This document shows, in pieces, positions 11,564 through 40,700 of a DNA stretch of 44,585 nt. Origin of the DNA: Nemertoderma westbladi. Taxonomy: Eukaryota > Animalia > Xenacoelomorpha. The notes below the pieces were generated by a model, which searched no databases, was not told the origin of the DNA, and was given only the letters and a program-made list of their open reading frames with translations. The position numbers and the translations under genes were made by a program. The stretch's first letter is position 1. Every line of letters begins with the position of its first letter. The stretch covers positions 1 to 44,585 of the forward strand of contig JAUCBJ010001959.1 of NCBI GenBank assembly GCA_032718475.1, read 5' to 3'.

Positions 11564-11787
11564 TTATATATTATGTAGATGGTTTACCAGTAACTCATTT
11601 ATATTATTGATCTTACATTTTTGCTTCTGTGCTTCTAAACACTTTATAGGCCTATCCTTATATAAATCATTAATATACTATACGCGCCCATCCATTAATA
11701 CTTGGGACCAAACTCGCTAAGCTAGATGAACATAATAAATTCATCCGCTTCGAATGTTTCCGGCGATTTTTAACCCCGTTCCGCAAC

Positions 11788-13095
11788 GTGGATAGCCAAT
11801 TTAAAGACCGCGCTTTGACCAAGCTCAGCCTAAGAAACTCAGCTGCAGAGAAGTTGGATAGCGCTGGATTCGTCATTTTCCAAGAGATTTGTATATCGAA
11901 CTTGCACTCCTCTGTTATACAAAGACCTCGAATCCCCACAGGTTATTCTGTCGTGGAAATTCAGACAATAGGTCCACCTGAAGAGACAGACACGCCCACC
12001 TCAGCTATGCACTTAGAAGACGAACCAATATGTCTAGAATCTGAGGAGATTCAGCCTATCGCGCCCCGGAACAGCGACAACGATTACATCATAGAATGGT
12101 ATCAAGGTCCACAGTGTCTCACTGCGTACGATTATCGACATGCCAACTATGTTTCTAGGCAACGTTGTCGGTTATGCGCATCGAGAGACCATGATACGCC
12201 CATGGACACAAACGTCCGCTGTTCCTATTTCCAAGAACAACCGACTATGGAAATTTATTGCGCATATTGCAGACTCAATAACTTGCACATTTTTGCGGTT
12301 TGCCCTCAATTTATGACTCAATGTCACCATTGTCAACTAAAGGGACACGCCAGTTTCGATTGCCCTTTTAATCGCGATTTGGAAAGCGTAGATGAAATGA
12401 TCACACTACGTTACATCAGAGCTTGGGAAGCGAACGCTGATTTACATTGTGATTCGCGCCATCATTATTATCCTGGACGCGCTTACGAAGGAGTTTATGC
12501 GTTCCATCCTTATCTATTCGCTTCTGTCGAACAGAAATCACGCATATCGAGTTACGAGCTACTGAAGCGCGTCGGAGAATGTATTTCAACCAAATTTGTA
12601 CGCAAATTTCTCAGGAGTGTTAATCCTAGCGACCTTCATTCCTATAACTTAATCAATTATATCCGTCAGGATCCGGACTATGGAGACTTATTTGTTAACT
12701 CACACCCCGAGTTACAGGAAGTATATCGACGGCCTTACGAATACCGAGCCCGCGAACGCGAGTTGGAAAGAACCATTAAACCCCGGAGGTTTCTAACTGC
12801 CTATGGTCCACCCACGGCTCTCGTTCAGACCACTCGTAAAGGACCCGTAAGAGCGGCTGTCTTAAAACGAGCTCTCAAAGCCGTTAGACCCCTCTCCCCC
12901 GACGTTGATGTCAATCAACCCGGTACTTCGACTGGCGGATACACCGACCATAATCCTACACCCTCTGATGCAATCATATTGCACCCTTCACCCAGGAGTT
13001 ATAGCCCTCCTTGTAAAGTGGCTCGCCCCAAAGAGAAAAAGACTCTGGCTAGCTTTAAAAAACTGCGTAAACGCCGTCCGCGCAAGAAAGACTAA
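11788..13095 (+). CDS. Cargo ORF: triple CCHC-type zinc knuckle + WExxADxH domain, basic NLS-like C-terminus
   Basis: Uninterrupted frame (open from 11674; first ATG 12007); CRLC..H, CAYC...H...C, CHHCQLKGHASFDC, RAWEANADLH; ends KKLRKRRPRKKD. Confidence 0.75.
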   Translation: MDSQFKDRALTKLSLRNSAAEKLDSAGFVIFQEICISNLHSSVIQRPRIPTGYSVVEIQTIGPPEETDTPTSAMHLEDEPICLESEEIQPIAPRNSDNDYIIEWYQGPQCLTAYDYRHANYVSRQRCRLCASRDHDTPMDTNVRCSYFQEQPTMEIYCAYCRLNNLHIFAVCPQFMTQCHHCQLKGHASFDCPFNRDLESVDEMITLRYIRAWEANADLHCDSRHHYYPGRAYEGVYAFHPYLFASVEQKSRISSYELLKRVGECISTKFVRKFLRSVNPSDLHSYNLINYIRQDPDYGDLFVNSHPELQEVYRRPYEYRARERELERTIKPRRFLTAYGPPTALVQTTRKGPVRAAVLKRALKAVRPLSPDVDVNQPGTSTGGYTDHNPTPSDAIILHPSPRSYSPPCKVARPKEKKTLASFKKLRKRRPRKKD

Positions 13096-20030: not shown

Positions 20031-20394
20031 TAATGCACGCTACGTTGTTACATCAAGGCAATTGTAGATTGCATGATGGTGATACAAATTTTTTGATAAG
20101 CCATCATAGCATCTCAATGTGCAGCTGCAATACAACAGGCAGATTATAGATAGATAAATAGATGATACACAGTACCAAAAAACAGAATACTACGATAATA
20201 CTCAAACCTTCAAATATAGTTCAGAATAATATTTTTCACAAATTTGAAAGAAAATTTTTGGAAGAAAAGTTTATCACATTTCATCCATATTTCACACATA
20301 CTTGAAATAAATGTACAAACCTATTCAAAATGATATTCTTTGAATACATGAATAGCATTATGACAACTTACCGTTGGCAAATTATATCTCTTAG

Positions 20395-20511: not shown

Positions 20512-21268
20512 GTAAGTTTTAAATTCAAAAATATAAAATTTAATAATTTATATAATATTTAATATCATTAAAATCAACGAATTATTAACATATGATAAAA
20601 ACAAATTCATTATACCACATTTTATTCACATTAAATAATTAATTTATCTACTTTAAGTACTCTGATTCACAATGGAATTCATTGAAATCTCAAAAAAGTG
20701 GTGTCAATTCACTGGTACAGTCACATACAGTTGCAACACTCTGTCTAGAAGACATTTCTTCACTACTTCACTAATAATACATCATGTTCAATACATCGAA
20801 TTGAGAATGGGTATAGTCATACTTTGCGATTAAAGCAAGGCAATAAAATATACTAGAAATGTACTGAAAGATAATAAAGGGGCTGCAATGCTTTATTAAT
20901 ATCATAATGTTGAAATTTTCACAAACCCAATAACATTATTAATGAATGAGACTAATTAAATTTTAACATCCCAATGTTGTAAAAAGCCATGTAAATGAAC
21001 AATTCGTATTTTTTTTGAGGGATATCAATATCTGACAATATTATATTATCTCTAAACACCAGTGGAAGTAGAACAGAATCATATAAAAGCTAATTAGTGA
21101 TAAGATGGCAGTGACCAGAAAGTTGAATCTATAGCGCCTGCAGAGTGGTGCTGGGTACTGGAAACTATATAAGTATCTTCCGAGGATATATATACAATGG
21201 CTCATTTGGTTATTTGTTGCACCAAAAATCAAAACTATAGTCCTTATTCTCTATTACAATATTTACAG

Positions 21269-21934
21269 GTTCCTGTGCTACTCAAGCCTACTGGCCTTTG
21301 AGTATCCAGTATGGAGCTACTGATAAACTTGGGGATCTAAATGGAACCATTTATAAGAGAATATCATTTGGTGTCGGACCAGCAGGAGTTAATGACCAGG
21401 CCATGTATTTCCGTGAAGGTTATGTTTCTATTCAACATGGTATTGAACTGCTCTCAGAAACATTTACACTAACAGCATTCATAAAGCCGATATTTGATGG
21501 AACAGGTGCTATTATTGAATTTGGAGATCCTGGTACAAGAGGTTCACATTTTCTTTTACACCCGAGTATATCCACTCTTTGGTACAACAGCATGAATGGG
21601 GCATCACAAACAGTGTTTAACCTGGATAATGCTGTAGAAATAAATGTGTGGCAAATGGTGGCCCTCATTGTCACAGCTGCGGAGAAGAAGGTGGTGATAT
21701 ATAGTCGAAAAGTAGGAAACGCAGATCATCTAAGATTGGAGTTAGGAACACCTTCAACAGGACGACGTTCTGGAGATTCCAACACGCTAACAATAGGAAG
21801 AGAACCAAATGTGAATAATGCATTTAAAGGATACATAGCCCATGTCCGGTATTACAGCTGTTATGTATCAGCATTCCAATTGGAAGACATTTACGGAGAG
21901 AGTTTAGGACTAGAAACTCAGTTTGACAGTTCAG
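21269..21934 (+). CDS. Host gene exon 7: LamG/concanavalin A-like domain 1
   Basis: YWPL..D..G..NG, FTLTAFIKP, NVWQMVA, LTIG....FKGYIAHVRYY; TTTACAG acceptor, G|GTTAGT donor (read-through stop at 21939). Confidence 0.88.
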
Positions 21935-22228
21935 GTTAGTTAAATTTAAATCATTTTTTAAATTGAGTAGGATTTAATAAATGGGGAATGTGTTCCAGAT
22001 CTTCACAGATTTATAACTCTGTATAGATGATATATTTTGTAATAAAGCCCCTATCATGAATAAAGCAAAGATAAGGAAAGGCAATGTTATAACTATATTG
22101 ATATGGACATAATTATTAGAAGTTTTGTCGGGTACAGCTTTACAAAGCGACTCGGCAATGACTTCCAGTCAGTTGCAGTGAGAGGTTTAAGACTTTAAGT
22201 ACTGTAGGGTTGAGCACAGTGGCAGCAT

Positions 22229-23375
22229 ATGATGGTATTGACAGATGGGTGGCCATGAGGAGGTAAATTGCGGACATACAAAATTTAAATATGAAAAAAG
22301 ATATGTAAAATTTCTTCAAATTTCAAAATTGTTAATGCAAAAATTAATAATTACATTAGATTTTGAGGAGTCATCAGACCGTACAAAGAGAAGAAATGTT
22401 CAATAAATTACTGATCATTATGAAACTTCTGCGCTAGTAGCAGCAACAGCTTCTTCCTTTCAATCAGCAGGTAAAGTGAAGAGCGGGCAGCAGATTCGCT
22501 TAATAAGTGATCATAAGTTTACATCTTATACACCAAACCAATCTATTGCTTTGATATTAAATGCCAAATTGACCAAAGCAGCGTATAATGTACTTCGCCT
22601 TCAAGCTATTAATAAATCTGCCAATTTAAATCCAGCTTACAACCGCGTTCGTGAAGCTAAACAGTTGTGCTACCCAACTGGAATTGAAGTCAGCAATTTT
22701 TCGGCATCCATCCCTCTTCAACATCTATTAGACCATACCGTTTCTCGAATCTGTGAAACCAGCAATGATGTTATTGAGTCCTTAAATTCTAATTCCAAAA
22801 CCGGCAATATTTGTAGATTTGGGCTTTGAACTAAAGCTGGATTTGATGGTAGCTCTGGCCAATCAAGATACAAACAGCTTCCCAGAATTGATGGTGATAC
22901 AGATGGTTCGAACATATTTATATCCTGCTTGGTTCCACTCGAATTGAGGGCATTCTCAGAATCATCTGAAAAACTTATAATTTGGCGAAATCAACATCCA
23001 TCATCAACATTATATTGCCGACCAATTCGATTCGAGTTCACTAAGGAGACTAAACAAAGGATTCTTGCTGAAGACATAAGACTCACGAGTGAGAAAAATG
23101 CCTTGATGCCATCTGAGGTTGTAATTGGTACTGAAAAATTACATGTCGAACATATATATTCGATCTCACAATGATTGATGGGAAGGTTCATACAGCACTC
23201 AGTGACATGACAGAAAGTTCACAGAGTTGTGACTTGTGTGGGGCCATACCTTCCCAGATGAACAATATTAAAACCTTGCTAGCCCGTCCAGTCTCCAAGG
23301 AAACTAAAATGTACCATCATGGACTATCCATTTTACATCAATGGATTCGATTTTTTGAGTGCCTGTTGCACATTG
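22229..23375 (+). pseudogene. Transib (RAG1-core-related) DDE transposase, 5' part
   Basis: FEESSDRTKRR, GFDGSSGQSRYKQ (D1), PSSTLYCRPIRF, MIDGK (D2), CDLC, GLSILHQWIRFFECLLHI; stops and frameshifts; probable intron 22263-22359; start approximate. Confidence 0.88.
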
Positions 23376-25535
23376 TGATAAACAACCGCGACCTCTATAC
23401 TAACAGCAGAACTGTTGAACAGACAAATACCCGTTAATATCCTTCTGTCAACCTAATGAGCTCTCGCCTAACCAATAAGACACAAAAAATGCTCTACTGT
23501 TAAGTAAAGGGGATCAGGAGCGTGCTATTACTAAATTGTAAGGGTTGCTAAATACAAAACTGCTACTTACCGTTGGATGGCGCTAATCTGCCGTCCGCTA
23601 ATATATTTTACTAAATTGACACAACTCCTGCAAAATCGCTTGTTCCTTTCTCTACCGATTGCTCGATAGAGAGCTAACTGTTCGAATCTATGAGCCACGC
23701 GGGAATAACCAAAACAATAAACCCGAGTCGGCTCCCTAAGCTTACTTAAGACGAGTGCGAGAGGCTTTGCACTCAGAGTATTCTTACGCCTAAATTTATC
23801 ACTATTAAAGCACGCTATTGTCTACGTCTTTTCTAATCGCGAATACTGGGGGTTCTCTAACGTAATGTGTGAATGCGAGAATATTTAAAATAATCAAATG
23901 ATACAGTATTTGTTTCTACGTAAATAGTACCGCTCTGGGTCTAAACTTGCCTGCCGCTGGCTTTAGGCCAGCAAAATTACTAGCGTATTGTGTGTGCCGA
24001 ATAGTGCGATCTAGCTGATTGCCCGCTAATGCAAATAACCGCTCAGCGTGAATAGTTTACAGTACTCTAATTATTACCTTAGCTACTCTCCGCTATGCTG
24101 CGTACTAAGTCTTAATTTTACTAATCAATTACAGTCACAAATATGTAACAGCGTACTAATTACTAAGAGTTCCAGAATGCGTAATTCTAATTTATTACGC
24201 AACAGGTTTCGCTAGTAATAGCCTAAATTGCCGTATTACTTTGACCTAATCAGTAACTAATTGTTGTAACTAAGAAATAGAAATCAATCAAAGAGAAAAG
24301 AGCGCCTACCTAAACATTCACAATCATAGGCACACTTCAGTAACACACCAATCAGCGTCAACAATCACAGTTCGCAATTATGCAGTTAACTACTGTATAA
24401 CCCACAATTATGCGACTCACTATTCTTACTCCACACTCAACGTTGTAATACGCGCAGGCCTCTCCCGGATACATCTAGGATTCCTAACTAACCCAATTCC
24501 TGCCCCCCTAATACTAAATAGAGACGAAACCTGGATCATCAGCCCCCTAGTTACTGTATCGGCGAATGGTCTGCGTGTTACAGTGCAAATGCCCGCCCGC
24601 AACGTTGACCCCCCGCCAGCGTTGCCCGTCTTTGAATCCTCCGCTCTCCCTTAGTCGCTCAACCCCCGATGTGCCCACCGCCTACTGGCACCTTAGCCCT
24701 CCATTATGCTAATAGCTACCGTAGCGGCGCATGCAAAATCACAAAGTCTGACAGTCTCAGAAATCCCTTAGGATTATTGCGTAGAAAGGAATCACATAGA
24801 ACCATTAATCAAAAGGTAGAAATCATAGTTCCGATTGTAATTAGCAGCAATCGATAGGATTAATTGAGAAACACAATCAAGAATAATCGCACTAGCAAAT
24901 CATTTCGAGAAATTAATCGAAAATAGCAAATTGCAGAAATACGCTAAAATATCCGTCAAAAAATGAATAGGGACAGCTCAGCAAGTACAGGGGTGATAGC
25001 ATGAGCTCTACCGGCACACCGCCAATTTATAGGTGATCCGAGTGGGTGATGCAATAGGGTGACTCAATCGCTCTCCCATTGGCTCTCCAGTCCGCGCTAG
25101 CATTAGACCAACCTGGAAGCAGTTAGTCCAATAAGGAGGCCGGATTGTAGCCCTATTGCCCTCAAATTATTACCATATATGGTAATGGATCATGTTCCTG
25201 GCTGCTGAATAGCCAAGACAGCGTCCCTATGCTAGCCCTATTGAAGCTAATATCAGCAAGCACGAAATCCAGGGTCCGACTAAACTTGCTACCCTGGAAC
25301 TATCTACATATATCCTAATACAAAATTACGTAGGTAGGGCTACATATTATACAAAATGGATGGGTTCAAATATATGGGCATTTCGATTTCCCTATCTAAA
25401 TATCATTGCGTTATTATGCCTTATCTAAAATATTATGCTGCACAACGGACTAATATTACGTACAGTATAACGGACTAATATTGCATACTGCATAACGGAC
25501 TAAAATATGTGGATACAGCGCCATATACCGTAACA
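23376..25535 (-). repeat. 3' LTR (23376-24697 shared with the other LTR; probably extends to 25535)
   Basis: Minus strand TGTTACGG...TTTATCA preceded by purine-rich GGAGCGG; CArG CCATATATGG (~25173), CCAAT (~25078), TATAAA (~25026-25031), AATAAA (24191-24196). The 25535 boundary is inferred. Confidence 0.75.
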
Positions 25536-26179
25536 CCGCTCCAAGGGAAATCATACAATGTTTCCCTCCAATTGTAGAAGAGTATAAGGTGATGTATACA
25601 AAACAAAATAAATTTCTTCCAACTAATCTAAATACTTGATACTATAAATCCTACTATTTACAAAATATTGCGATAGATATTGCATAATGAATTGCATACA
25701 AATTAAATTTACAAATATTATCTCTCTCATACAAATTAAATTTACAAAATATTGTTTCTCGTTCGTTCTACATAATGATTACTACATACAAAATCAAATA
25801 TATAAAATTTTGCTAGGGCAAGTGAAAGGAGTAAGCCAAACCCGCAGGTTTGTCTCCCCAATCACTTCCTTTGCCTCTCTCATAATATAAATTCAAACAG
25901 CTCAACTAGTGTATATGAGTCTAGTCGAAGATTTCTAAAATGCTACAATATACATCAGAGCGACGATGATGTATATATCTAGAGTCTGTCGCCCTGTGCT
26001 ATAATGTATTATCGACCCGCTCCTGGGTTCTTTGGGCTCGCTCCTCTCTTTCGCCCTCTTCCCAGATACACCAGTCTACCTCCAGTCGACTCCGTTGACG
26101 GCGTCCGTGAGGCGTCACTCCCCGGAACCGGCGACGATGTTCCCTGAGCCCCGACAGATTCCCGGCTTGTGCTTTTTCC

Positions 26180-29100
26180 TCAGCCTCGTCCCAATTGTCG
26201 TGCTCCTGTGGTCGCTTCCGCCAACTCTTCCTTATGCAGTTGCACACGCGCTTTCTCCGATGCTCCCTGCGCCTTGCGCTGCAACCTTTGCGCTTCTATA
26301 ATAGAATGATAGTGGTCGTCCTTGACTTGACGCTTGTCTTGGACCCCTCCTCCTGGTTCCTTCCGCGAGCCTTGAGCTCCAGCGGTTGTTGCTGTGGTCG
26401 CTGCGATCCTTTGCTCCTGTATCCTCTCAGCGGTCAATGAACCCACTGGCACATGAGTCAACAAGAATTCGTTGCGGTATTGAATAGCCGCCATCCTCCA
26501 ATCACCTCGCGCGCGTACCACTTTTCTAGTCTCCGTAAATACACCCTTCGTGATGCGATCGCAAATAGCAATGAAGTTCCAGGTATACTTATTGTCCATA
26601 TTCAACTGTCTGAAGTATTCTCGGACTACGATAACTCCAGTGTTCTGTGGAAGGTCTTGAGCAGTTAGGATGAGTTCCTGATATTGTGGTAGCGATTGTA
26701 GATATGGCTCGTACGCAACATGTGATGGGTCTACCGCCCAAAATCCATATCCCGCCTTGAATGGTAACCAACGCATCTGCGCTTGAATATGGTAGTCGGC
26801 CACACTCTCCCACTTATCTAACATCTCCCGAAGTAGGTTAGCGCTATGGTTTTGAAAGAATCATCTCGCAGCTGACATCTCGCGCTACGATGTCCCTTTA
26901 CCCCACAATATCCACATTGAGAAATGAAGACGGTGCACGTGTGAAACGAATGGTCGGTCTCATTACACCAACGACAGACCTTATGCGCCGCCTCTACTAC
27001 CGCGTCGCACGACTTTAGATTGTGCCTTGTGCTGCCGCACAATTTGCACCTACGCGCTTGTGGAAACCAGGCCCTCTCGTATATGAGGTCTCCAATCGGT
27101 TTCGCACTTCCTTCCTTCCCAATGTCTAATACGATGTCGTCTTCTCCGGTCAACGGTTGTCGATCCGGAACAAAGTAAACATCCTCGCCCTTGTCCTCTA
27201 TCTCCAATATTTCCTCCCGCGTTCGTTTCGGATATGTCTTCTCCACCGGAAGATCTACTCCGAACACCTCTACTAACGTCTCCGGCCAGCCCTCCTTAAC
27301 AGGTCTATCAGCCTCCGAGTGGAAGGGAGTACCAAACCCGCGGGTTTGATTCCCGAACCACTTCTCCAAAGCTTCTGGCGTCGGATACTCCATCGACGGT
27401 CGGTCTCCCAAATCTCCGATGTTCTGTCGATATACTCCTTCGAATATCGCTAATCCTCTCCTTACCATCGACGTATTCTCTAACGATTGGTTGAAGAACG
27501 GGGTTAAGAAACGCTTCATCACGTCGGATTGGATTCCCCCTTTCGAGCGAATGTATTGATCTCCTCCGAATACCAATGGATGACGCTTCAAAACTCGCGC
27601 AACGATATCCGCTAATAAACAAGTCACCGTGTTCGACTCAAGCACCAAATAATATTGTAGCGATGCACGGGGTGGCACGCAAATGTTCCAATACACTAAC
27701 GCTTGCCGCTTGAAGTGGGATTTGAACTCCGCTCCCGGTGGCGTGTTGTATTCGCCATACGCCTCCTCGTACTTCTTCTTCGTCTTTAACTTAAAGTCCC
27801 AATTATACAACAAGTGTGCTATAAAGCCCATACCAGTCTTAGCAGAGTTGGGATACTCCCTATAAATTCCAATATCCTGTGCCCATAGCAACAATAGCTT
27901 GGTGTCGACAAACGGTCTCGGCAATCTATCTTCCAGATCAGTCATGGCGTTGAAGTCGCTCTCCAAATCGCTCTGGACTCCCGATCCCACCTTGACGTAA
28001 TCTTGGTTGAGAATAGCCTCTCTAACTTTCTTGGGTAGCATCCTGGCGTCGATACGCTCCGCTCCGTGCATACCTCCTCGCCTGCATACCTCCAAAATCT
28101 GCTCCCTAGGATCCTTCCCCTTCCGATATTGTGTCGTTATGATGGGCTCTGGTCTCTCTCGATCCGCCCTCACACGCATAAACACATGAGTCACACCATC
28201 GGCTGCACGAATTTGAATACACTTGCTAGTCAAACATTCTTGATGGGACCCTCCTTCATTGTCGTAGAACATCACCCTCCAATCCTGCAGTGATTCCTCC
28301 GTTTTCCTCCACTGACGCTGAATCTCGTCTGATGGGGTCCACATGCGCTCGATAGCCTTGTGGTCATCATATCGGGTATAAGAACCCTTCCTCCTCAGCC
28401 ACGTCTGGTCTACCTCCTCGTCGTCTGGGAATGTAGCCACCGCGACCCATACCTTGATGTACTTATCCAACCATCCAAATAGTTTACTCTCCTTCCCCGG
28501 AGCTCCAATCTTATCCAATGTGTCGTAATCTGTGATCTGCATTGGGACATCACGCAAGAACTTCGCGCATAAAACTTCCCGTAGACAGTCAACGTTCCAA
28601 TGATCCGCCATTCTTACCATCGGCAAGAATCGTATCGCTTCTCGCGACTCCGGATGATCTACTAATATCGCAGGTTCGGGGCCGTCGGAATAATACACCG
28701 GTCGGGGTTGAGATACGACCTGTGGAACAAATCCGGTCACTCTCCTCGTCTCCTCTTGATGTCTATCCGCGGTCTTATTATACTCCACTATCCTGTTCTC
28801 AAATAACTCTTTCGCCTTCGCCGCTCGCTCCTCCTGCCGCAACGCGTCTATGTCGTCCTGATGCTCAGGCGTGAGGCTTCTCGCTCGGTGAGGTGAAGTA
28901 AACGCAGTCCAGGGACTCGAGAGCTCCAAACCCGCGGGTTTGGTACCCGAGTCCCGCGCCGCTTCGCGCCGCGCCTCTAGATCCTTATAGGCTCGGTACA
29001 GCGAAATGGCCACTGCCGTCTCTATCAAACTGGGTGTCGAACAGGGTTTAATCTCCGTATACGGATCTAATGTCGTAACGGTCGGCGTAATGGGTCTCGG

Positions 29101-29715
29101 AGGTCGCTTTCCGCTGAAGTCGATACTGATCATCGGGTTGCTCATCGGGTAACCTCCCTCGTTGTATCTAAGGAACTGGTGAGCTGGACATCGCGTTAAT
29201 ATCGGTTCCGGATGTTGTTCGTCTAATCAGTCGGGAATCGCCACGTCTTGCTTATTCATGCATTCACCACACTTGTAGAACAGCTTGTACACGCTGAAGA
29301 CTTTCGACGTCTCCTGATCCTCGCCTCGAGTCCTCCGGTACAGATGCATTCCGTCGAACTGATCTCGGATTGCAGGTAGAGGTTCTTTGTGTCGTAAATA
29401 CATATTCATATGGTACAGTCGTGCGATCTCCTCGTCCGGATCTGCGCTGATGTCACATACGTCCAAAGCAAAGTCGTAGGGATACCGCGTGCGATACTCT
29501 CTCCGCAAAACTTCCATCCGGTCCCCCAACGCTCTCATTCTTTCCCTCCGTAATTCCTTATCATAAGTCGGTTTATATTTTCCGTTTAGCTCCATCACGG
29601 ACCGCCCATGGTAGTAAACGTTCGAATCTTTACATCCCGGTCGCGCGAATGGTAGCTCCGCCTCCTCTCTGGCAGTAAATCCTCTGCGCGGTTGCGCTCT
29701 AATATCCCTCTCCAT
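26180..29715 (-). pseudogene. Accessory ORF of the BEL element: C3H Zn motif, DEDDy 3'-5' exonuclease, triple Zn knuckle, WExxADxH domain
   Basis: 162 aa and 775 aa ORFs are in frame across one TGA (29227); 214 aa ORF overlaps by frameshift at ~26820; ExoI FYDNEG, CIQI, LP..V...IL...YVKVGSGVQSD, FVDT, GMGFIA, W..., YYLVLE. Confidence 0.8.
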
Positions 29716-30476
29716 TATGCCTCGCGTATATACATATATATATATCCCAATAAGTGCCGTTACGTAACCAATTACACTGTGGGTAAATCAGTTAGATGTC
29801 GCCGAAAGACAGACCTCCCGAACCCCCCCCGCCTTCCAGCAGTTCAGGTTCGACTCTCTAGATCCCGTCTCTTCCTAACTAACTATCCTCTAACCTATTC
29901 CCATGCATAGCGCAAAAACTTTGGAGATAAACTGGCCGTGACCAACTCACTTTTTGATGCCCAAACTACTCCCATTACTCGTAATAAACTACAGTAGTTA
30001 GAAAGGACCATAGCCACAATACTCGACTATACCAAACCCACAGGTTTGATAATCGAATATCACACATCCTGCAAACTACTGAGTGGGGTCCATGTACGCC
30101 TCTGGTGCTACTAACCTTTAGCACCTTAGTTGCACTGTTGGCACCAATCTGTGGAAGTTGCTAAACTCAATTTACACTCCTACGTAATATAGCCGTCACC
30201 ATGGTTTCTAAATGCTATTTTCCAGGCTTCACGACTTTCAAATTACTGTTTCTATAGACGAATTCTAAAACGCGTCTATACACAGCGTCTGGAATTGTCT
30301 TGGGTTCACTTCTAATTTTTAAAATTTAAATTTTTCCAAAAAATTTTTTTTTTTAAATAAAATTTTGTTTTGATACCCACTAGACAAAACTCAACGCAAA
30401 TCACCACAACCCCGCTCCTATGCATTTCCTTGTATTTGCATACGAGGAATGCATACGAAGTGAGTTGCGTCCAACA

Positions 30477-32008
30477 CTAATTCTGTTTTGAGGCAGGAGA
30501 CAAATTATAATCTCCCGTCTCGATACGTGTCTCCTCTAATAACACGATATCTTGGACCGGTCGGTCCAAGGTATGTAAACCATTAGTTTTACACTTTTTT
30601 GGGTGCGGACACTTGCACCTAATTTTCACAGTGACTGTGCGCACTATGTTTTGCACGTCTGGGTGTGTGTGTGCAAGATCACTCCAGTCTCCCAATACTT
30701 TCTCTTGACAATGGGTTCGGTTATCAATACGTAATCTCCCTTTTGGAGACTCCGAACCGTTTTGTACCACTTTGTTCTGGTAGATATGGTGGGAAGATAG
30801 TATTCCCGCCAATATTCCCAGAATGTGTACGCGACTAATTGTGTTACCTTCCAGCTTTTACGACTATATAGGTCGGCACTAATGGGTTCTGATGCCGGCA
30901 CAAGAAATGCTGGACTCTGCATTAGCAAATGATTCGGCGTTAATGCAACACCGTCTGGCAACATAGCTATCGGCCTCGAGTTTAGGGTATGCTCGATTTC
31001 GATGAAAGCTGTAACCAGTTCGTCGTCGGTAAGTTGTTTATTTACAGGCAATGTCTTGGCAATGGCCTGCTTTACAGAGCAAACCAAACGCTCCCAACTT
31101 CCTCCTCTCCAAGGAATTTCTGGAGTATTAAATCTCCACTCTACTCGTTGCGGCAAAAGTGCTGCAGAAATTTCCTTATTCTGTGCTGCTTTATGAGCCG
31201 CGTTCAACTCGCTATTCCTTCCGACAAAGTTTGTACCCTTATCGGAATAGAACGCCTTTACTAGTCCTCTCCTGGCCATAAATCTCTTTAAGGCCAGGAG
31301 CAGAGATTTGGTCGACATGTCTGCCACACGCTCGATATGTATGGCTCTACTAGCCATGCATGTCAGCAGCAGACCCCATCGCTTGTGGGTCAGCCGTCCA
31401 CTCTTTGCTTCAATCGGACCAAAACAGTCCACCCCTGTGTTCGTAAAGGGTGGGTCATATGCCTGCACTCTCGCTTCCGGGAGTTCAGCCATCTCCTGTT
31501 CCAATACTCTGGCGTTCACCCTCTTGCAAACCAGACAGGCGTCGTACATAGTGCCGACTGCCCTGCTTGGCTGCAATAGAATGAATCGCTGTCTCGCTGC
31601 CGACAAACAGTGTAACTTTCCCGCGTGATGCAACCTCTTGTGTATATCCCATAGAATCGCTCTTTGCAATTCTATCGGGTGACTAGGGATTATCACTGGG
31701 AACCGAAACTGTGAGTTTATGTCGACAGTCTGGATTCTCGATCTATGACAAATCAAACCCTTATGGATTAATGGACTCCATTTTCTAAGGGGTTTATAGA
31801 GAACTGGTCGTTGAGCCGATAATAGATGGAATTCTTTTGGGAAGGCACACATTTGATAATGCTTCAAATGCTTTAATTCCGCTTGATCAATCTCATCCTC
31901 TGTCAGAGGTTGTTTCAATTTCCGAATTCGCTCACTATTAGTGCTCGATGGTATCTCAAATGTTTCGAATGTTTTAAACAAAGGTGCAAAATGTATCGGC
32001 TTAACCAT
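30477..32008 (-). pseudogene. pol: BEL/Pao integrase (HHCC, DDE core, C-terminal domain), frameshifted tail
   Basis: H....H...CLVC, PPFTNTGVDCFGP, YSDKGTNFVG, PWRGGSWERLV, NSRP, LTPNHLL, FWEYW.EYY. Confidence 0.92.
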
Positions 32009-33093
32009 GCAGTTCTTTTACAAATTGTCAGCCAAAAGGCAGACGAATTTAGTAATTTGTCATAAACACTGCATGACTCTAATGCCAGCGACGGTTGTCC
32101 GCTAACTAATGGAAGTTTCGAATCCAAACCCGCAGGTTTGGAAACCAAAGGCTCCGTTGTGTCGGTCATTTTCTGTCCGTCACTTACTAACTGTGACTCT
32201 GGTTTAGTCTGTAAGGGTGGTTTGATGTCATAACTTACCCTTCCGGAACTAGTAGTCACGTAAGTCTGTTGGTCTGGCAGGTCTCCGGGCCGCTCCAATG
32301 ACTCTTCAGGCCGCTCCAATGACTCTTCAGGCCGCTCCAATGACTCTTCAGGCCGCTCCAATGACTTAAGTTTGGCCTTAGACTTTGACTTAGAGACTTT
32401 CTCCACCTTGACTTCTGCATCTTCAGGCATCGGATTGGTCACTATCTTTAGTCGCTCTGGCCAATGTTCCTGTGTCCTCGTTAGAAAATCAGGTCCATGC
32501 AACCAAAACTCCTGCGACTCTTCCTGACAGAATTCCACCGGCATTGCACCTCTCGAAGTTATGTCGGCCGGGTTCAACACTCCCGGACAATGTCTCCATT
32601 GTTCCTTCGTCGAAAAGTCAACGATCTGAGCGCGTCTATTGGCCACAAATGTCTTTAGTGCAATATTGTCGGCCGCAATGTATACTAACACCAAGGATGC
32701 GTCCGTCCAATAGAATAAGGTCAATGTCGTGTCTAACTCCTCTGTTATCTGCTTACTTACCTCGACTGAAACTACAGCCGCCTGTAACTCTGCACGAGGG
32801 ACAGTCATGTATTTGACCGGCATTGTCTTTGATCTAGAAGTCACAAAGGCCGTCTCGAACTTGTCCTGACTTGCCTCTCGGCGAAGGTAGGCTACCATAC
32901 CAAAGCCGGTGTCACTTGCGTCACTAAATAGGTGGAGCTCTAAATCAGCTGGGAATACCAGCTGATTCGGAAAGTAGGAACGGGGTACATCTATATTTTT
33001 CAATAGATGCAACTCGGCTTCCCACTCCCTCCACTGCATATTGGTTCGTCCCACTCTACGTCGGACAACCAAATTTTCCTCATGCACGCTCAT
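31915..33093 (-). pseudogene. pol: BEL/Pao RNase H region and linker
   Basis: LHLFSDAS..GFG.VAYLR, TVPRAELQAA, YWTDA, FVANR, WRHCPGVLNPADITSRG, WLHGPDFL. Confidence 0.92.
32289..32365. repeat. 21 bp coding tandem repeat (SLERPEE x ~3.7)
   Basis: GGCCGCTCCAATGACTCTTCA repeats within the RH-IN linker. Confidence 0.9.
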
Positions 33094-34787
33094 GCCTGTA
33101 ATATTACTGGACTGATAAAGTTCATCGGGTCAAATAGTCTACTTAATGTCGATAAGCAAATCCTCTTAGTCAAAACCTTGTCTGGGCTACTGGGCTCAAA
33201 TCTAACTCTTACCTGGAACTTATCTGAGTTCGGGTTCCAAGCGAGTCCCAGTACTCGCGCCATGGGGATTGGTTCTACCCCCAATTCAATGTCTCCGCTC
33301 CCGCGATCTTTCACCGGGAACGACTCTAATAGGGCCTCCGAGTTCGTAGTGAACTTGGTTAGAGAAAAACCCCCTGTAGCCAAGCACTCTTGCAGGCCGT
33401 GAGCCACTTCTATGGCTTGTTCCGCCGTGTCCTTGGACACCAATCCGTCGTCCATATAGAAGTTTCTCAAGATGGACTCGATTACTTCTACTGGGTACTT
33501 ACCAATTTGGGCTGTTGCCGTTTTCTTTAAAACGAACAGCGTGCCATTCGGACTATCGCGGGCGCCAAATATCCTAACGTACATTTGGTATGTAACCACT
33601 GGGCCGGATAAGTCTTCATTCTTGTACCAGAGAAAGCGAAGGCTATCCTGGTCTGCCTTACAGGCTCTTACCTGGTGGAACATCGCCTCGATGTCACAAG
33701 TGAATGCGAATCGCCGCTGTCTAAAACGCAACAGTATTCCAATCAAATAATTGTTCAGGTTGGGACCATCCATCAACTCTGAATTCAGGGACATGCCTCT
33801 ACAGACTGCTGCGCAGTCGTTGACTACTCGGACTTTGTCAGGTTTGTCAGGGTGAGTCACATAGTGGTGTGGAAGGTAATAAGTCTGGTCTGTCACTAAG
33901 TCAGGGTCCTCTACCTTCCCAGCAAATCCCTTGGCAAAATAGTTGTTGATCTGGGCGCAATACTTCTCCCTAATGCCTGGATTCTCCATTGTCCGTGGTC
34001 CATTGACATGCGGCTCAGCTGGTCTCGTTTCCCATATCTGGTGTGCGATCAGCTGTTCTGCACCAATCAACATAGAAACATTCCTATAACCTACCTGGTG
34101 TCTCGGTATCCTGAGCTTGTCAAAATACTCCTGTGCTATGGGACTCATCGGCGGCACCTTACCTAACTGCCTGCCGAATCCCTTCATAGCTAGACACTTA
34201 AATCCGTCCAATGGCAAAGCTTTCCGTTCTTGTCGAGTGTGTTGCTCTCTCGGAAGTAGGGAATCTAGTTCCACCGAAATTATGTGTCCCTTGAGGTCAC
34301 CTACCCCGTGCATAGACTTCAACTCTATTTGGATCTCCTCGGCGTCCTGGAAGCTAGAAACGGCTCTCGCCACTTCCTCGTCGATAAACGATAATGTGGA
34401 CGCAGTGTCCAACATCACATATATTCGCTTTGATCCCTTATCACCGGTAAGTTTCACCGGAATCACGCTAAATATTTCCGACGTGGCCGATGATAAATAC
34501 GTCCGCGCGCTGGTCGATGAACTATCCGCGGTGAAACCTTGGCAGGTCACTTCTCTCGCGCTCGACTCGCCATCCTCGTCCGACGAACCTGGTTGGTAAC
34601 CATCGTCCTGGATGCCAGTGTACGTATTCCTTCTTATCGATACGGGTTCTTTGTGAGGATTTCGCTGTAAGTAACGGTCCGGTTGGGGTATGGAAATCCG
34701 CATGTAGCAACTTGTGATGTAGTCTGCCGCATTCCATGCATCCGTCCTTGCTGTTCGGGCACTGCCGCCGTACATGGCCTGGCGCAA
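33090..34787 (-). pseudogene. pol: BEL/Pao aspartic protease + reverse transcriptase (internal deletion between them)
   Basis: MLDTASTLSFI; YYLPHH.V....K..KVRVV.D, SLN..L..GP.L, DIEAMFHQV, FGARDSP, FYMDD, RVLGLAW, FDPMNFISP. Confidence 0.92.
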
Positions 34788-36642
34788 GACATGCCCAACA
34801 GGTGTCCAACGTCCGCACTTGAACTCTTTTCTGTTCCGAATTTAATTCTTTGAACCGTCTGCAACTATCTAACTTATGGTCGTCAGATCTTACCTCCTTT
34901 AGTAAACAGTATTGGCAACCTACAAATCCATCCGGCAACTCCTGTTGCTTTAACCTAGGTCTATCTAACCGCTCACCTGACCATACTCGCGAGTCTGATC
35001 TAAAGGCTGGGGTACTCGAATTATATCTGTCTACTGAGTTAAATGTCACAGTGGTCCTGTCATCGTCAAAACTTACCATAGACTTACCGGTAACAGGTTT
35101 AGACTCTCTCATATTCTCTTCTGAGAAGTTTGATTTCATCTCTGCTACTGCGTCTGTGGCTATCATGTCATGAATATGCTGAAGTGTCAACACCTTACCT
35201 TGGCCCTCCAACTTATTCTCTAATTTGCGCCATTTCTGTCGATAACGCATGTTTAAACGTCTTATTACGCTCTTCAAAACTTCGGCGTGATCACCATGAT
35301 GAGGTAGATTCACCGTCTTCAAGATGTCCAATGCGTTCGAAATAGCGTTCGCTAAGTTCAACAGCTCTAACGGAGTTGTAATCCTTCCGCCCTTACCCAA
35401 GTCTTCTACTATCGACTGCGCCATCTTGGTTTTATTCCCGTAGATGTCACTAAGCGTCTTCATCGCTAATTCGAATGCTCTTTCGTTGCCGACGAAGTTA
35501 TCAGCAATGGCTCTAGGTTCTCGATGGAGCATCTGAAGCAAATAGTTGAACTTCTCGTTGGGAGTAAAGGTGCTGTTGGTTAGCTGCTCGTCGACATAGG
35601 TTTTGAAGGTCCTCCAGTGCTTGTGGTTGCCCATAAACTTCTGGGGTTGTTGCGTCGGCAGTCCTTGCCTAGCAGCAAACTTACCTATGTCCCTAAGGGT
35701 TGCGTCGTTCCGGGTTAACAAATGGTTTAGTTCCGCAGGGTTGTTAAGTCTGGTCCTTTCCCGGTGGTTCCAACTTACCTGCTCCGCGTCGGTCCTTCTT
35801 TCCTTATAGTTTCGGGACTTCTGACGTCTCATTTCTTCCTCTTCATCGCTTGACTCGGTGTCAGTCCTTAGCGCTCGCGATGATTTGCACGCTGAGGCCC
35901 TGACCCAAGCGTCCTGAATAAATCTTTCTGCCGAATTTTCGAAATTGGGATTAGAGATGTTCGGGACAGGCGTCCTTACCTGAGGTCTATGTGGTATAGT
36001 TTCCTCCGATATGCGTACTCGTTGACTAGGCTGGACTTTGTCAAACTCAGGCCTGCTAGGATTAGAATTACTTCTTACCTGGGCTGCTTCCTTTAACCTT
36101 AGGTTGCTAAGCATGTCCGTTATAGGTTGGATGTGCGGCGATATAGCTTGCGCTAAACTAGCACTTAACTCATCCCTCGTAATAAATTCCTGGCTAGGGT
36201 TCTGTTGTATAGTCGGCTCTATCTGAGTAATTCGCTGTCTCTCATATGATCCCTCTTCCGGTTTAACCCGGAAGTTCTCCGTCGAACTGGGTCGGCGCTC
36301 CGTCCGCGTATTCCAAACCCGCGGGTTCGGTTCGCCCAATACTCGTCCCGTTGGAGTTTCTTCTCTAAATTCTCCATTGTCTCGTTCGGTGTATAGTGGT
36401 GCGGTGTTCCGATGACGTAGATCCTGAGCGATGGGTGAAGCACCAATACCAACTGGTATGCGATATGTAGAGAACGGTTTAGCGATCCGTGTACTCGTAA
36501 TAGCTGGACCGGGTATAGGAATTCTGGTCGTCGTCAACTCACGTATGGTCGGAGTTCTCGCTTCCTGTTCGGCCTTCTGCAGTGCGAACAGTTCTCGCAA
36601 CTCGGTCCCTACACTCGCCCCACATTCTTCGATCATTCGCAT
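34522..36642 (-). pseudogene. gag: BEL/Pao gag core with three Zn knuckles
   Basis: KFMG....W..F, EKFNYLLQML, L...YG; CQYC..H....C, CWACLAPGHVRRQC, CMECGRLHHKLLH. Confidence 0.9.
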
Positions 36643-36670
36643 CCCCTTCTCGGCGATTTAATTCGCCTTC

Positions 36671-38341
36671 CTAGTCCGTTCTTCGCTCTCTAAATTTAAT
36701 CTCACACTTTCCTTCCTTTATTTCTCCTTTCTTTAACTGCGCCAGTTTACTTTCTTCTTCTTCCCTCGCTCGTCTCGCTGCGCTCTCTTCTTCCACTCGT
36801 GCCTTTTCTTCATACAATGCGCGTCTTCTTTTTTCAATCTCGAGTTCGCGTTCCTTGCGTCCGCGTTCGAGTTGAAGCTCGCGCTCCTTCTGTTCACGAT
36901 CGAGTTTCTTGCGTTCGCGTTCTGCTTGGAGTTCGCGCTTCTTCGCTTCCTGTTCGCGTTCGAGTTGGAGTTTGCGTTTCTTCGCTTCCCGCTCGCATTC
37001 AAGTTGGAGTTCGCGTTCTCTCTGTTCGCGTTCGAGTTCCTCGCGCTCGCGCTCGGCTTGGAGTTCGCGTTCCCTTTGCTCGCGTTCCGCTCGCTCGCGC
37101 TTACTTATCTCTTCCAACTCTTGTAACTCTGCGTCCAACTTACGTGTGCGCTCCCGTTCCCGCTCGGCTTCCTTCCGTGCTTCCGATGCACGCAAAACTT
37201 CCGCCTGTTGTTCATCCAGTCGGCGTCTTCTCTCCTCCGCCGAGTTGTGCGAAACAAGGGATCTAGCACATATAACCTTACCTCGCGCGTGACTAACCTG
37301 GGGATCGCCGCTGTCTCTAGATGCGTCGTCGGGTGGAGTCAACGTCCTCTGTTGGATGTTCTCCGTCGTCGGTAGCACCTGGCCTGGTACCACCACTCCA
37401 TTCTGCATCAGCCAGCTAGTAACTTCCCTTTGATAACGGCGCTCCTCTTTATCTTGGATCTCTTCTCGCTCCACTAAGTCTCTCAACTCTGCGTCACTCA
37501 CTTGAGTCGCCTGCGCTTGTGATGCCCATAGCAGCCAGTTCTCCGTCCTAACCCGTCGGAATCGCTCCGATAACTCGCGGTGCTCCAACAAGGCTGCTAA
37601 AACCCTGTCGTAAATCCTCGTCGCCACGTCGCTCGACTGAGACTCTACTGCCTTCTTTGCTAGGACTGCAAGCTCCTCCGTCTGCTTGAATAACGCTGAG
37701 TTATATCCTCTTCTAATCTCTGCTAACTCTACCCTCCCGATGTTCGCTGAGTCGGCTAACATCTTCCTTACCTTGTCCGCCGTCCGTGTTATATGTCCGG
37801 CGTGCGCGCGAAGTTTCTTCTTTATCGCAGTGTCGAACTCTCTATCACTTACCTGACTTACACTCGGTGGACTTGAAGGATTATTTCGGGAACTACGGGT
37901 ACTCCTTACAGCCGTCGGGACCACGGCACTTACCATACCCACAGGTCTGGAAACCGGGCTCCGGGCTCTCGCTTCTGCTACACTACCCTCCCTATCACTC
38001 ACCTCTGGTTGGGTTGCTGTACAATCCTTCCTTACAGTAGCGGTAGGGGATTCTAATACTATTACTTGAGGTTGTTGTTCTTCCTCACTAGTCACTGTCT
38101 CATCCTCCTGTTCACTTACGTCAGCGTCGCTCGCTGCGTCTTCATAGTCGGCATTGTCGTCAACAGTTATATCGACGCTATCGTCAGTCGGCGGTCCGGC
38201 CGCCGTCTCATAGCTGTCCTCTAGTGCCTCTTTGTCTGAGACACTCATAGTCTTAATAATGTTTGCCTTCCGGCAAAATATCTCGCAAAAGTTCGAGATA
38301 TAATTATAATTTAACCGAAATACGGTCAAATTATTTGTCAA
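36671..38341 (-). CDS. BEL/Pao gag N-terminal part: acidic region + long E/R coiled coil
   Basis: 556 aa ORF just upstream of the gag core, likely ATG ~38248; ERELQ/EREQ repeats at ~36780-37110; out of frame with the core. Confidence 0.7.
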   Translation of the reverse strand: MTNNLTVFRLNYNYISNFCEIFCRKANIIKTMSVSDKEALEDSYETAAGPPTDDSVDITVDDNADYEDAASDADVSEQEDETVTSEEEQQPQVIVLESPTATVRKDCTATQPEVSDREGSVAEARARSPVSRPVGMVSAVVPTAVRSTRSSRNNPSSPPSVSQVSDREFDTAIKKKLRAHAGHITRTADKVRKMLADSANIGRVELAEIRRGYNSALFKQTEELAVLAKKAVESQSSDVATRIYDRVLAALLEHRELSERFRRVRTENWLLWASQAQATQVSDAELRDLVEREEIQDKEERRYQREVTSWLMQNGVVVPGQVLPTTENIQQRTLTPPDDASRDSGDPQVSHARGKVICARSLVSHNSAEERRRRLDEQQAEVLRASEARKEAERERERTRKLDAELQELEEISKRERAEREQRERELQAEREREELEREQRERELQLECEREAKKRKLQLEREQEAKKRELQAERERKKLDREQKERELQLERGRKERELEIEKRRRALYEEKARVEEESAARRAREEEESKLAQLKKGEIKEGKCEIKFRERRTD

Positions 38342-39370
38342 ATAATCAGTTGGTCCAAAATGTCAAATAAATTCGCAATGCAATATTGTGAATTTAATGG
38401 GGTATATAGTTATAGCAAATACTAACACAATATTTAAACAAAAATATTATTATATAGCTACTATATAGTATTAAATACCGGTATAGCACGAAATAACTTT
38501 TTGAATCTAATACAAAATATTCAAAATATACTTGCCGCCCGAATATTTCTAATTTTATATATATAGCTCCAAACAACGTAATTTTAATTTCAAATATTAT
38601 ATGTATCCACTAGCGCGTGGCTACATCTTCGGGTTGCGACTCTCTCTAACTCTCTCTCTAACTTGAGCGATTCAAAAAACCATGGCCGGCTAAACCTAAA
38701 TATCCTAACTAATAAATTGAGTTCAGCTTCGCAGTTAAACAACCGATAATTTTTTACTGCTTCCACAAACACAATGGTGCCAACAGAACAACTAACCTTG
38801 TTTGCTGTGAGATTCCACGTCCGCGTCCAAAGATTCAGGCCCTTCGCTGATTGCAAACCGAACCCGCAGACCCACACGAACCCCAAACTCAGAAGTTCCG
38901 TCTTGCCATGTATCTCCAGATGGTATAAAATAACTAAGCGGTTACCTAACATACCGGTACAAAACTCTAGAATTTTACAAAATAATTTTGACCGAAACTG
39001 AATTCTCGCAAACCTAGCTAAAATTTTCAAAAAACTTACTAATTACAATTTGCCCTGAGGCCTAAAGAACTGCTGTATTCGCAATTAGCAAAACGCACTA
39101 CCGTACATCCACTGTATGCAGCACAGTAAGTAAAACAGTACACTAACCTAACAGCCTAATGTACTACTGTACTATTGTACGCAGCCAGTGAATACAGTAA
39201 TCTAAACTAACAGCCTAAGGGAATATACTCAATGTCTTACTGTACGCTAGCCTATAGCCTACAGCAGACGATCACGTGCTCTAATTTATTACTTAATATT
39301 GTGATACTACTAACAGCCTAAGAATACACTATTGACCGCTGCAAGCAACAGCCAATAAAACGCGTATTAC

Positions 39371-40693
39371 TGATAAACAACCGCGACCTCTATACTAACA
39401 GCAGAACTGTTGAACAGACAAATACCCGTTAATATCCTTCTGTCAACCTAATGAGCTCTCGCCTAACCAATAAGACACAAAAAATGCTCTACTGTTAAGT
39501 AAAGGGGATCAGGAGCGTGCTATTACTAAATTGTAAGGGTTGCTAAATACAAAACTGCTACTTACCGTTGGATGGCGCTAATCTGCCGTCCGCTAATATA
39601 TTTTACTAAATTGACACAACTCCTGCAAAATCGCTTGTTCCTTTCTCTACCGATTGCTCGATAGAGAGCTAACTGTTCGAATCTATGAGCCACGCGGGAA
39701 TAACCAAAACAATAAACCCGAGTCGGCTCCGTAAGCTTACTTAAGACGAGTGCGAGAGGCTTTGCACTCAGAGTATTCTTACGCCTAAATTTATCACTAT
39801 TAAAGCACGCTATTGTCTACGTCTTTTCTAATCGCGAATACTGGGGGTTCTCTAACGTAATGTGTGAATGCGAGAATATTTAAAATAATCAAATGATACA
39901 GTATTTGTTTCTAAGTAAATAGTACCGCTTTGGGTCTAAACTTGCCTGCCGCTGGCTTTAGGCCAGCAAAATTACTAGCGTATTGTGTGTGCCGAATAGT
40001 GCGATCTAGCTGATTGCCCGCTAATGCAAATAACCGCTCAGCGTGAATAGTTTACAGTACTCTAATTATTACCTTAGCTACTCTCCGCTATGCTGCGTAC
40101 TAAGTCTTAATTTTACTAATCAATTACAGTCACAAATATGTAACAGCGTACTAATTACTAAGAGTTCCAGAATGCGTAATTCTAATTTATTACGCAACAG
40201 GTTTCGCTACTAATAGCCTAAATTGCCGTATTACTTTGACCTAATCAGTAACTAATTGTTGTAACTAAGAAATAGAAATCAATCAAAGAGAAAAGAGCGC
40301 CTACCTAAACATTCACAATCATAGGCACACTTCAGTAACACACCAATCAGCGTCAACAATCACAGTTCGCAATTATGCAGTTAACTACTGTATAACCCAC
40401 AATTATGCGACTCACTATTCTTACTCCACACTCAACGTTGTAATACGCGCAGGCCTCACCCGGATACATCTAGGATTCCTAACTAACCCAATTCCTGCCC
40501 CCCTAATACTAAATAGAGACGAAACCTGGATCATCAGCCCCCTAGTTACTGTATCGGCGAATGGTCTGCGTGTTACAGTGCAAATGCCCGCCCGCAACAG
40601 TGACCCCCCGCCAGCGTTGCCCGTCTTTGAATCCTCCGCTCTCCCTTAGTCGCTCAACCCCCCGATGTGCCCACCGCCTACTGGCACCTTAGC
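39371..40693 (-). repeat. 5' LTR, truncated at its outer (U3) end
   Basis: 1323 bp matching 23376-24697 with ~8 differences; does not end in CA on +; no intact TSD. Confidence 0.9.
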
Positions 40694-40700
40694 TTGCTTG

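Follow-up and report, generated by a model that had tools for sequence, protein, structure and literature searches.

A predicted DnaQ/DEDDy-type exonuclease gene with three zinc knuckles in a BEL/Pao retrotransposon of Nemertoderma westbladi

Introduction

Why would a retrotransposon carry an exonuclease-like gene at the position of env? The question arises from a 44,585-nt stretch of Nemertoderma westbladi DNA (contig JAUCBJ010001959.1, positions 1 to 44,585), which was analyzed as a whole and is called the window. It contains a minus-strand BEL/Pao long terminal repeat (LTR) retrotransposon of 17.3 kb (about 40697 to 23376), and between the integrase pieces and 3' LTR of this element lies an additional gene, ORF3. 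An earlier reading of the letters alone (the original prediction) had proposed that this gene encodes a DEDDy 3'-5' exonuclease of the WRN/Mut-7/EXD/RNase D family with CCHC zinc knuckles. We concluded that ORF3 is a selected, family-wide extra gene. Our preferred explanation is that it encodes a predicted DnaQ/DEDDy-type exonuclease with three knuckles, which would grip single-stranded RNA and trim the element's own RNA at its 3' ends in the course of replication; we assign it a rough probability of 0.4.

DEDDy ORF3s are present in the bdelloid rotifer LTR elements Juno and Vesta and in Athena/Terminon elements, with a DEED variant (PMC5408684; PMC6431247, PMC6338049), as the original prediction had noted for bdelloid rotifer retroelements.

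Results

An additional gene under purifying selection

Three minus-strand open reading frames (ORFs; 29227-29787, 26818-29226, and 26180-26860) occupy the region between the integrase pieces and 3' LTR. The span between the ATG at 29715 and the stop codon at 26180 comprises 1,178.7 codons, and the pieces are thus separated by one stop and one frameshift. The rejoining of the three ORFs across one TGA and one frameshift into approximately 1170 codons, as originally predicted, was therefore upheld. The features of the gene are as follows.

26180..29715, minus strand: ORF3, additional gene of ~1,178 codons with two breaks in the window copy (ORF translations)
28330..29715, minus strand: N-terminal ~460 residues of ORF3, with a CxxC...CxxH motif straddling the stop
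29227..29229, minus strand: stop codon private to the window copy (depth of runs X1 and X3)
26850..26865, minus strand: frameshift break, absent from most other copies (depth of X1 and X3)
29777..29795, minus strand: candidate splice acceptor, 62 nt before the ORF3 ATG (branch-point-like CTAAC and CAG)

X1 and X3 are two DNA runs from two studies, and both breaks were rare in them. At the stop, 16213 of 16252 in depth (X1) and 30122 of 30122 (X3) differed from the window copy, and the frameshift near 26.86 kb was missing from 81% (X1) and 95% (X3) of the depth. Programmed read-through was rejected because the stop is private to the window copy. The third ORF carries on the homology to relatives (72.7 bits with an X at the break; maximum 67.1 and median 52.1 in 300 shuffles of this part). 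Furthermore, a relative elsewhere in the window (11674-13095) holds the knuckles and tail in a single frame, which independently supports the frameshift join.

The selection test used 38 changes from the best-supported 40 of 61 variant rows across 28900-29800, a choice that favors common variants; two rows were left out, namely the broken codon and one that lies upstream of the ATG. Among the changes segregating between copies in 28900-29715 (816 bases), 31 of 33 were synonymous, whereas 34% would be expected for transitions (binomial P 7e-13): 25 synonymous and 2 non-synonymous upstream of the stop, and 6 and 0 downstream. Four of the five changes private to the window copy were non-synonymous. 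Purifying selection acts on the N-terminal part of ORF3 both before and after the stop. For the exonuclease domain, the support is indirect only: diverged contigs covering 28136-28455 showed 45 substitutions and 0 gaps. The original prediction had named a one-off insertion and a dN/dS of ~1 as outcomes that would speak against it. The frame was open family-wide in X1 and X3, and the changes in the N-terminal part, to which the test applied, were far from the neutral expectation. A one-off insertion or dead passenger was rejected on the basis of the family-wide open frame and the synonymous bias.

As anticipated, no transmembrane segment was detected in ORF3 (the highest 19-residue Kyte-Doolittle mean across its three pieces was 1.34), and an env identity was rejected on this basis. 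The N-terminal part yielded no Pfam match above the cut-off, and 28330-29226 yielded no PDB match. CxxC and CxxH half-motifs flank the private stop (29230-29270 and 29170-29190); together, they may form a further zinc finger.

Motifs and active site of the exonuclease-like domain

A phmmer search of 1.84 billion representative proteins returned three matches at E <=0.001, designated P0001, P0002, and P0003. The best-scoring part was the knuckles for P0001 and P0003 and the exonuclease part for P0002. The domain is uninterrupted in the window copy, and each motif listed in the original prediction was found in the order given there, including Glu as the last catalytic acid.

27600..28330, minus strand: DnaQ/DEDDy-like 3'-5' exonuclease domain with motifs of the WRN/EXD/RNase D type (profiles, Atlas)
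28252..28269, minus strand: favored ExoI, FYDNEG (D-x-E; E-INS-i, joint alignment, pairwise tests)
28221-28210, minus strand: CIQI (translation)
27967..27993, minus strand: ExoII, KVGSGVQSD (G, S, and D invariant in 4/4 family members; aligns to EXD2 and RNase D)
27912-27901, minus strand: FVDT (translation)
27693-27679, minus strand: YWNIC, carrying the predicted Trp (translation)
27637..27654, minus strand: ExoIII, YYLVLE, with Tyr kept and Glu as the last acid (alignments)

The ExoII Asp was invariant in all 14 rows of a joint alignment (A5). ExoIII reads Y-x3-E in the window protein and P0002, Y-x3-D in P0003, and C-x3-D in P0001. Since Glu occurs in one of the three outside homologues, it is a family variant and does not necessarily indicate decay. 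ExoIII is not Y-x3-D; therefore, we describe the domain as DEDDy-like and not as a canonical member of PF01612. The alignments disagree on the ExoI motif because about 26-30 additional residues lie near it in the window protein. FYDNEG, the favored candidate, was placed at ExoI by both E-INS-i and the joint alignment. Of 20 pairwise N-terminal alignments, 7 agreed, 1 chose a rival, 1 fell elsewhere, and 11 left the motif unaligned.

At 20-24% identity, the window protein, P0001, and P0002 all retain the D-x-E, the ExoII Asp, and an acid at ExoIII. With three canonical acids and the Tyr in place and Glu as the fourth acid, the predicted exonuclease is reasonably likely to be catalytically active. 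The same site may also be read as that of a weak or dead DnaQ-like domain serving as an RNA-binding scaffold, comparable to EXD1, Maelstrom, and Egalitarian, which would act as an adaptor that helps to export, transport, or package genomic RNA, perhaps through the hairpins described below. Inactive DEDD derivatives that retain RNA binding are cited in PMC5408684. The ExoIII Glu, the loss of the Tyr in P0001, and the insertion of ~26-30 residues by ExoI with its uncertain register agree with this possibility, as do six hairpins confined to the element, five of which are stabler on the sense strand. The activity of Egalitarian is reportedly dispensable. However, the acids named above have been kept despite ~22% identity, P0003 has a canonical YxxxD with ExoI in the upstream frame of its contig, and Gag likewise has knuckles and may bind the hairpins instead. 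We regard such a pseudo-nuclease as possible, but less probable than the trimming enzyme.

Evidence for the fold

We consider it very likely that the domain adopts the DnaQ fold, a conclusion resting on several weak lines. In the ESM Atlas, 24 of 30 matches were PF01612 at 0.91 and the ten best family-bearing ones all agreed, against a background in which shuffled proteins reach 0.9 in 4-10 of 100. P0002 matched PF01612 weakly in Pfam (E 0.2), and its three best Atlas clusters were PF01612 (0.86-0.77); the nearest (0.86), which combines PF01612 with zf-CCHC in Euglenozoa, serves as a lead only. The window domain scored 56 bits with a profile built from P0001-P0003 alone, whereas none of 1000 shuffles exceeded 5.5. 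Searched against the PDB, the family profile placed EXD2 first (E 0.33), with both ExoII and ExoIII aligned in register; Roquin followed at E ~1. In hhalign comparisons with bacterial sets, P was 0.0017 for RNase D and 0.0012 for the WRN-like proteins. Scores above the 99th percentile of their own shuffles were reached by 23 of the 25 proteins in the RNase D set and by 6 of the 16 in the WRN-like set. A model guided by an alignment of ten bacterial exonucleases and P0001-P0003 had a predicted local distance difference test score (pLDDT) of 48; Foldseek ranked EXD2 and WRN first (E >=0.07), and VIA-align matched residues 103-281 to Nibbler (Z 6.2, root-mean-square deviation 5.4, 139 aligned) and to diDNase, WRN, and other DEDD or proofreading-type domains.

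Other searches added little. In BFVD, nothing was found at E <=0.001, with 3'-5' exonucleases at ranks 1 and 14 and an RNase H-like protein at rank 3. A phmmer search of the PDB returned a stretch of rotavirus VP4 (E 0.003), taken as a chance match, and block hidden Markov models built on bacterial exonucleases could not distinguish the window protein from shuffled sequences. Structure searches were not significant without a guiding alignment.

EXD2, WRN, Nibbler (Mut-7), and RNase D (PF01612) share with ORF3 the order of the motifs, KVG..D, DT, GL/GM, W, and Y-x3-acid, and are its best, though weak, matches. However, ORF3 falls below all curated cut-offs, carries Glu at ExoIII and two insertions, and has no detected HRDC domain (26821-27501 gave no Pfam match, and Pfam is equally blind to the exonuclease domain). 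The family claim of the original prediction therefore stands as a DnaQ/DEDDy-like domain supported by several weak lines.

Chance resemblance of the motifs in some other domain is in line with the lack of a significant match in any single search and with Atlas values of 0.9 in 4-10 of 100 shuffled proteins. However, the independent weak lines name one family, and the motif order is right in four diverged proteins; we hold this explanation to be the least probable of those considered.

Several results weigh against our preferred explanation. The window exonuclease domain had no Pfam or NCBIfam match. A third bacterial PF01612 set did not exceed its shuffles (0 of 20), and an unguided single-sequence AlphaFold model (pLDDT 33) had no exonuclease match. 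The test with the guided model is circular, as DEDDy sequences were in the alignment, and the ExoI half was unmodeled. In a family-only MAFFT alignment, the ExoI of the homologues falls on FMRVRADRE (28153-28190), by which the first Asp would be lost. Selection was measured in 28900-29715, which is N-terminal and outside the exonuclease domain. In addition, the primer of Tf1 is made by cleavage near the 5' end of the mRNA (PMC4600332), which speaks against a role for the exonuclease in priming.

Zinc knuckles, tail, and relatives

26875..27048, minus strand: three CCHC zinc knuckles, each an exact C-x2-C-x4-H-x4-C (27048-27007, 26976-26935, 26916-26875)
26590..26860, minus strand: conserved domain after the knuckles with an aromatic G-F motif (72.7 bits against <=67.1 in shuffles; tblastn to the 11.7-kb ORF, E 3e-4)
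11674..13095, plus strand: truncated, diverged ORF3 relative in a 473-codon frame, with the post-exonuclease region, three knuckles, and tail (E 9e-9, 22% identity)

The three knuckles follow the exonuclease region, as predicted, and the family profile matched AIR2, the finger domain of T. brucei RNase D (7c42, E 2e-4), and retroviral nucleocapsid. The tail domain alone was not significant (E 0.25). P0001-P0003 have a common order of an exonuclease-like domain, a low-complexity linker, three CCHC-type knuckles, and the conserved tail. P0003 lies on a 2.5-kb contig (L001) that bears no other long gene, and its ExoI motif is in an upstream frame. The exonuclease domain of P0003 is split between ExoI and the next strands in two frames (257-571 and 546-2405), which may reflect an intron or a frameshift.

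Further searches for homologues were largely negative. Word-index searches found nothing beyond P0002; since one of them missed even its own members, these negatives carry little weight. Viral contigs, phages, and plasmids contained no useful homologue, metagenome contigs only the P0003 contig itself, and genome contigs a single gypsy gag knuckle. Profile A2 gave three weak matches in 301 bacterial genomes. A contig of a bacterial metagenome-assembled genome (L002, 1987-6105) carries an intact gypsy-type gag-pol, apparently contamination from a host animal.

The relative at 11.7 kb is flanked by two 1,281-bp repeats that are 99.7% identical (10289-11569 and 13661-14941) and contain a microsatellite and ~147-bp subrepeats. 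We take these to resemble MITE/Helitron-type repeats (MITE, miniature inverted-repeat transposable element). The relative possibly moved with the repeats as a composite unit. Its interpretation as a small LTR element was not adopted because the flanking repeats look non-LTR.

Structure and class of the element

30477..38362, minus strand: BEL/Pao gag-pol, split into five or more ORFs in the window copy (Pfam)
23376..25864, minus strand: 3' LTR, starting with TG after the polypurine tract and ending with CA; depth step at 25870
25865..25881, minus strand: polypurine tract (sequence)
39371..40693, minus strand: 5' LTR, final 1.32 kb only (alignment to the 3' LTR)

In gag-pol, DUF1759, Peptidase_A17, and DUF5641 exceeded the Pfam cut-off in order, with Integrase_H2C2 at E 2.7e-5 and RVT_1 weak. 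This arrangement between the LTRs agrees with that of BEL/Pao, in which gag, protease, reverse transcriptase (RT), RNase H, and integrase follow one another with BEL-specific domains. Judged by its proteins, the element belongs to BEL/Pao, not as a typical semotivirus. For Belpaoviridae, genomes of 4.2-10 kb, tRNA priming, and only env-like third genes are given, and a typical Semotivirus genome has LTRs of 0.2-1.2 kb and an 18-nt tRNA-Arg or tRNA-Gly primer site after the 5' LTR (International Committee on Taxonomy of Viruses profile, PMC8742986). In contrast, this element measures 17.3 kb with an LTR of ~2.5 kb, and its third gene has no transmembrane segment.

The LTRs are identical at 1,315 of 1,322 aligned bases (99.4%). 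The true LTR length is probably ~2.49 kb because at 25881-25863 TG follows directly after a polypurine tract and depth rises there. If so, the 5' LTR would be shortened to its last 1.32 kb. An empty site joining 23372 to 40698 was found in X1 and X3; therefore, the insertion is young or polymorphic. Although the 5' LTR appears short by ~1.17 kb, comparison with the empty site reveals no missing host DNA (40693-40700, 23373-23375), and the junctions have just a 3-base duplication and a few filler bases; a one-ended, non-canonical integration is suggested. A leader of ~1 kb separates the 5' LTR from gag (38363-39370), and gag is very long, with >1,200 codons over its two broken frames and a charged coiled-coil repeat at 36826-37088.

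X1 and X3 covered each of the 30 bins into which the element was divided. Depth over ORF3 was approximately half that over pol, a measure that cannot rank genes. Contigs from X6 skip 27840-29828 and 29240-29570, and deleted derivatives therefore exist. Run X4, labeled as a different organism (B), yielded contigs that share about 97-99% identity with gag, pol, and ORF3; this may reflect a close relative, mislabeling, contamination, or horizontal transfer.

Primer site and hairpins

39361..39370, minus strand: primer-site position, not of the tRNA type; 10 nt perfectly complementary to an LTR 10-mer
40440..40449, minus strand: candidate self-primer 10-mer (second copy 24445-24454), whose 3' end is flush with the LTR boundary when paired
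27333..27348, minus strand: hairpin CAAACC-YGYG-GGUUUG, one of six (others at 25837, 28927, 30033, 32125, and 36314)

A tRNA primer site was not recognized at the start of the leader, which lacks TGG (the first TGG is at +17). As in Tf1-type elements, the primer-site position is complementary to the element's own LTR, with the 3' end of the primer at the boundary. This complement, found after the fact, comprises 10 of 10 pairs plus a G-U; complements of at least 10 arose in 7 of 3000 LTR shuffles and at 9 of 1000 offsets in the leader. It appears in the minimum free energy and centroid folds, and the LTR 10-mer sits between the only TATAAA and the only AATAAA of the LTR. These sequence features suggest self-priming. 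In Tf1/Tj1, the 5' end of the mRNA is released by cleavage and acts as the primer (PMC4600332). The likeness is that the primer-site position pairs with the own LTR and not with a tRNA; however, the complement here lies 1,069 nt from the LTR end. It appears improbable that an exonuclease stopping at the 10-nt duplex makes the primer.

The 16-nt hairpin was found six times, only inside the element and two of them within ORF3, against 0.09 expected. The copies are spread over the LTR, gag, pol, spacer, and ORF3, with a variable tetraloop and extended, sequence-divergent outer stems; a partial look-alike lies near 38850. In five of the six, the fold z was below -3.5. Variation was in the loop or preserved pairing, with two-sided changes in 4 of 12 consensus pairs. 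A search of Rfam gave no match. The hairpins may be binding sites for Gag or the ORF3 knuckles.

Other features of the window

A laminin G3/concanavalin-like exon (Pfam E 2e-10) and an 85% identical second copy (21241-21939 and 44031-44585) flank the element and represent a duplicated host gene. Other repeat fragments lie at 16592-17215, 19887-20149, and 42287-42918; in the last, an ORF at 42325-42918 matches DUF6451 (E 6e-6) and is likely a remnant of a long interspersed nuclear element. Positions 4658-4991 and 8790-8985 hold inverted arms of 122 bp that contain 22-bp subrepeats (MITE-like), together with a minisatellite of 14 bp.

Discussion

In the explanation we prefer, ORF3 would be expressed from a spliced subgenomic RNA in the manner of env, as the CTAAC and CAG before its ATG suggest. 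The knuckles would hold single-stranded RNA, and the exonuclease domain would trim the 3' ends of the element's RNA, either removing the tail or shortening the RNA as far as the duplex at the self-complementary primer site. RNA is proposed as the substrate because of the analogy to T. brucei RNase D (TbRND), the one characterized enzyme found with this pair of domains, the CCHC fingers of which bind RNA and strongly raise cleavage (PMC7797062). In both proteins, a DEDD exonuclease precedes tandem CCHC fingers, and the cluster type of TbRND is that of the nearest Atlas cluster of P0002. However, TbRND is cellular and has four fingers ~28 residues after the domain, whereas ORF3 has three knuckles ~190 residues away together with extra domains and resides on a retroelement.

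An active exonuclease may instead degrade or mis-trim host small RNAs or their precursors and thereby counter silencing. Among the structural matches, the guided model lies near Nibbler (Z 6.2) and EXD1 (5.1), both small-RNA pathway proteins, although these are tied with many others, and the family is abundant and recently mobile, as its nearly identical LTRs and the empty site indicate. The mature 3' ends of piRNAs are 2'-O-methylated and resist trimming, which argues against such a role. Moreover, rotifer DEDDy ORF3s do not clearly track copy number or silencing (PMC5408684). We consider counter-silencing unlikely.

The substrate may also be DNA, with the enzyme trimming the 3' ends of cDNA or proofreading for RT. 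WRN and the proofreading domains of polymerases have the same fold, and CCHC knuckles also bind single-stranded DNA. The DEDDy domain of Dada transposases has been proposed to process DNA ends (PMC3706591). However, the gene is separate and unfused to RT or integrase, the copies are divergent and transition-rich, such that high fidelity is not evident, and the known enzyme that combines an exonuclease with CCHC fingers is an RNase. This alternative is very unlikely, and RT proofreading is the least supported of the functions in the original prediction. A broader version of our explanation, in which a tRNA-independent BEL/Pao lineage loads the knuckles on hairpins of genomic RNA, matures an LTR-derived primer with the nuclease, and belongs to a wider unrecognized exonuclease-triple-knuckle family, is a speculation to which we give little credence.

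The closest precedent is the rotifer DEDDy ORF3 (PMC5408684). Both are separate ORFs after pol, in the env position and without a transmembrane segment, and both have one catalytic Asp changed to Glu. However, the host here is BEL/Pao, and the change is at ExoIII (DEDE) rather than ExoII (DEED). Compared by description, the present gene is further distinguished by its length (~1,178 codons), its long N-terminal part, its three knuckles, and its conserved tail; the rotifer ORFs did not appear among the matches of any homologue search. Dada DNA transposons also carry a DEDDy exonuclease on a mobile element; however, it lies inside the DDE transposase and is a canonical DEDD (PMC3706591).

The architecture had been proposed as unprecedented. 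The pairing of an exonuclease with tandem CCHC fingers is known from trypanosome RNase D (PMC7797062), whereas no BEL/Pao case was found in the literature; Repbase, Dfam, subscription journals, and supplements were outside this search, and an annotation may therefore exist. The word "exonuclease" occurs 0 times in PMC3118150, PMC6238403, PMC8556966, and PMC12440569. Thus, the DEDDy retroelement ORF3 and the exonuclease-CCHC pair are already known, and the BEL/Pao host, the WRN/EXD-type motifs, and the triple knuckle are new.

With the present results, the DEDDy gene type reaches beyond the LTR and Penelope-like elements of rotifers to BEL/Pao. They also add direct evidence of purifying selection on a DEDDy-type ORF3; in the rotifer study, only env-like and GDSL ORFs were tested for selection, and these were neutral (PMC5408684). 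The order of exonuclease, knuckles, and tail in four diverged proteins indicates an unnamed family worth defining. A retroelement-borne DEDDy exonuclease with a demonstrated function was not found in the literature searched, and the unbroken domain may be assayed alone. If the domain is active on RNA, it would show what an element gains from an enzymatic ORF3, whether the processing of its own RNA ends, the making of a primer, or escape from small-RNA silencing.

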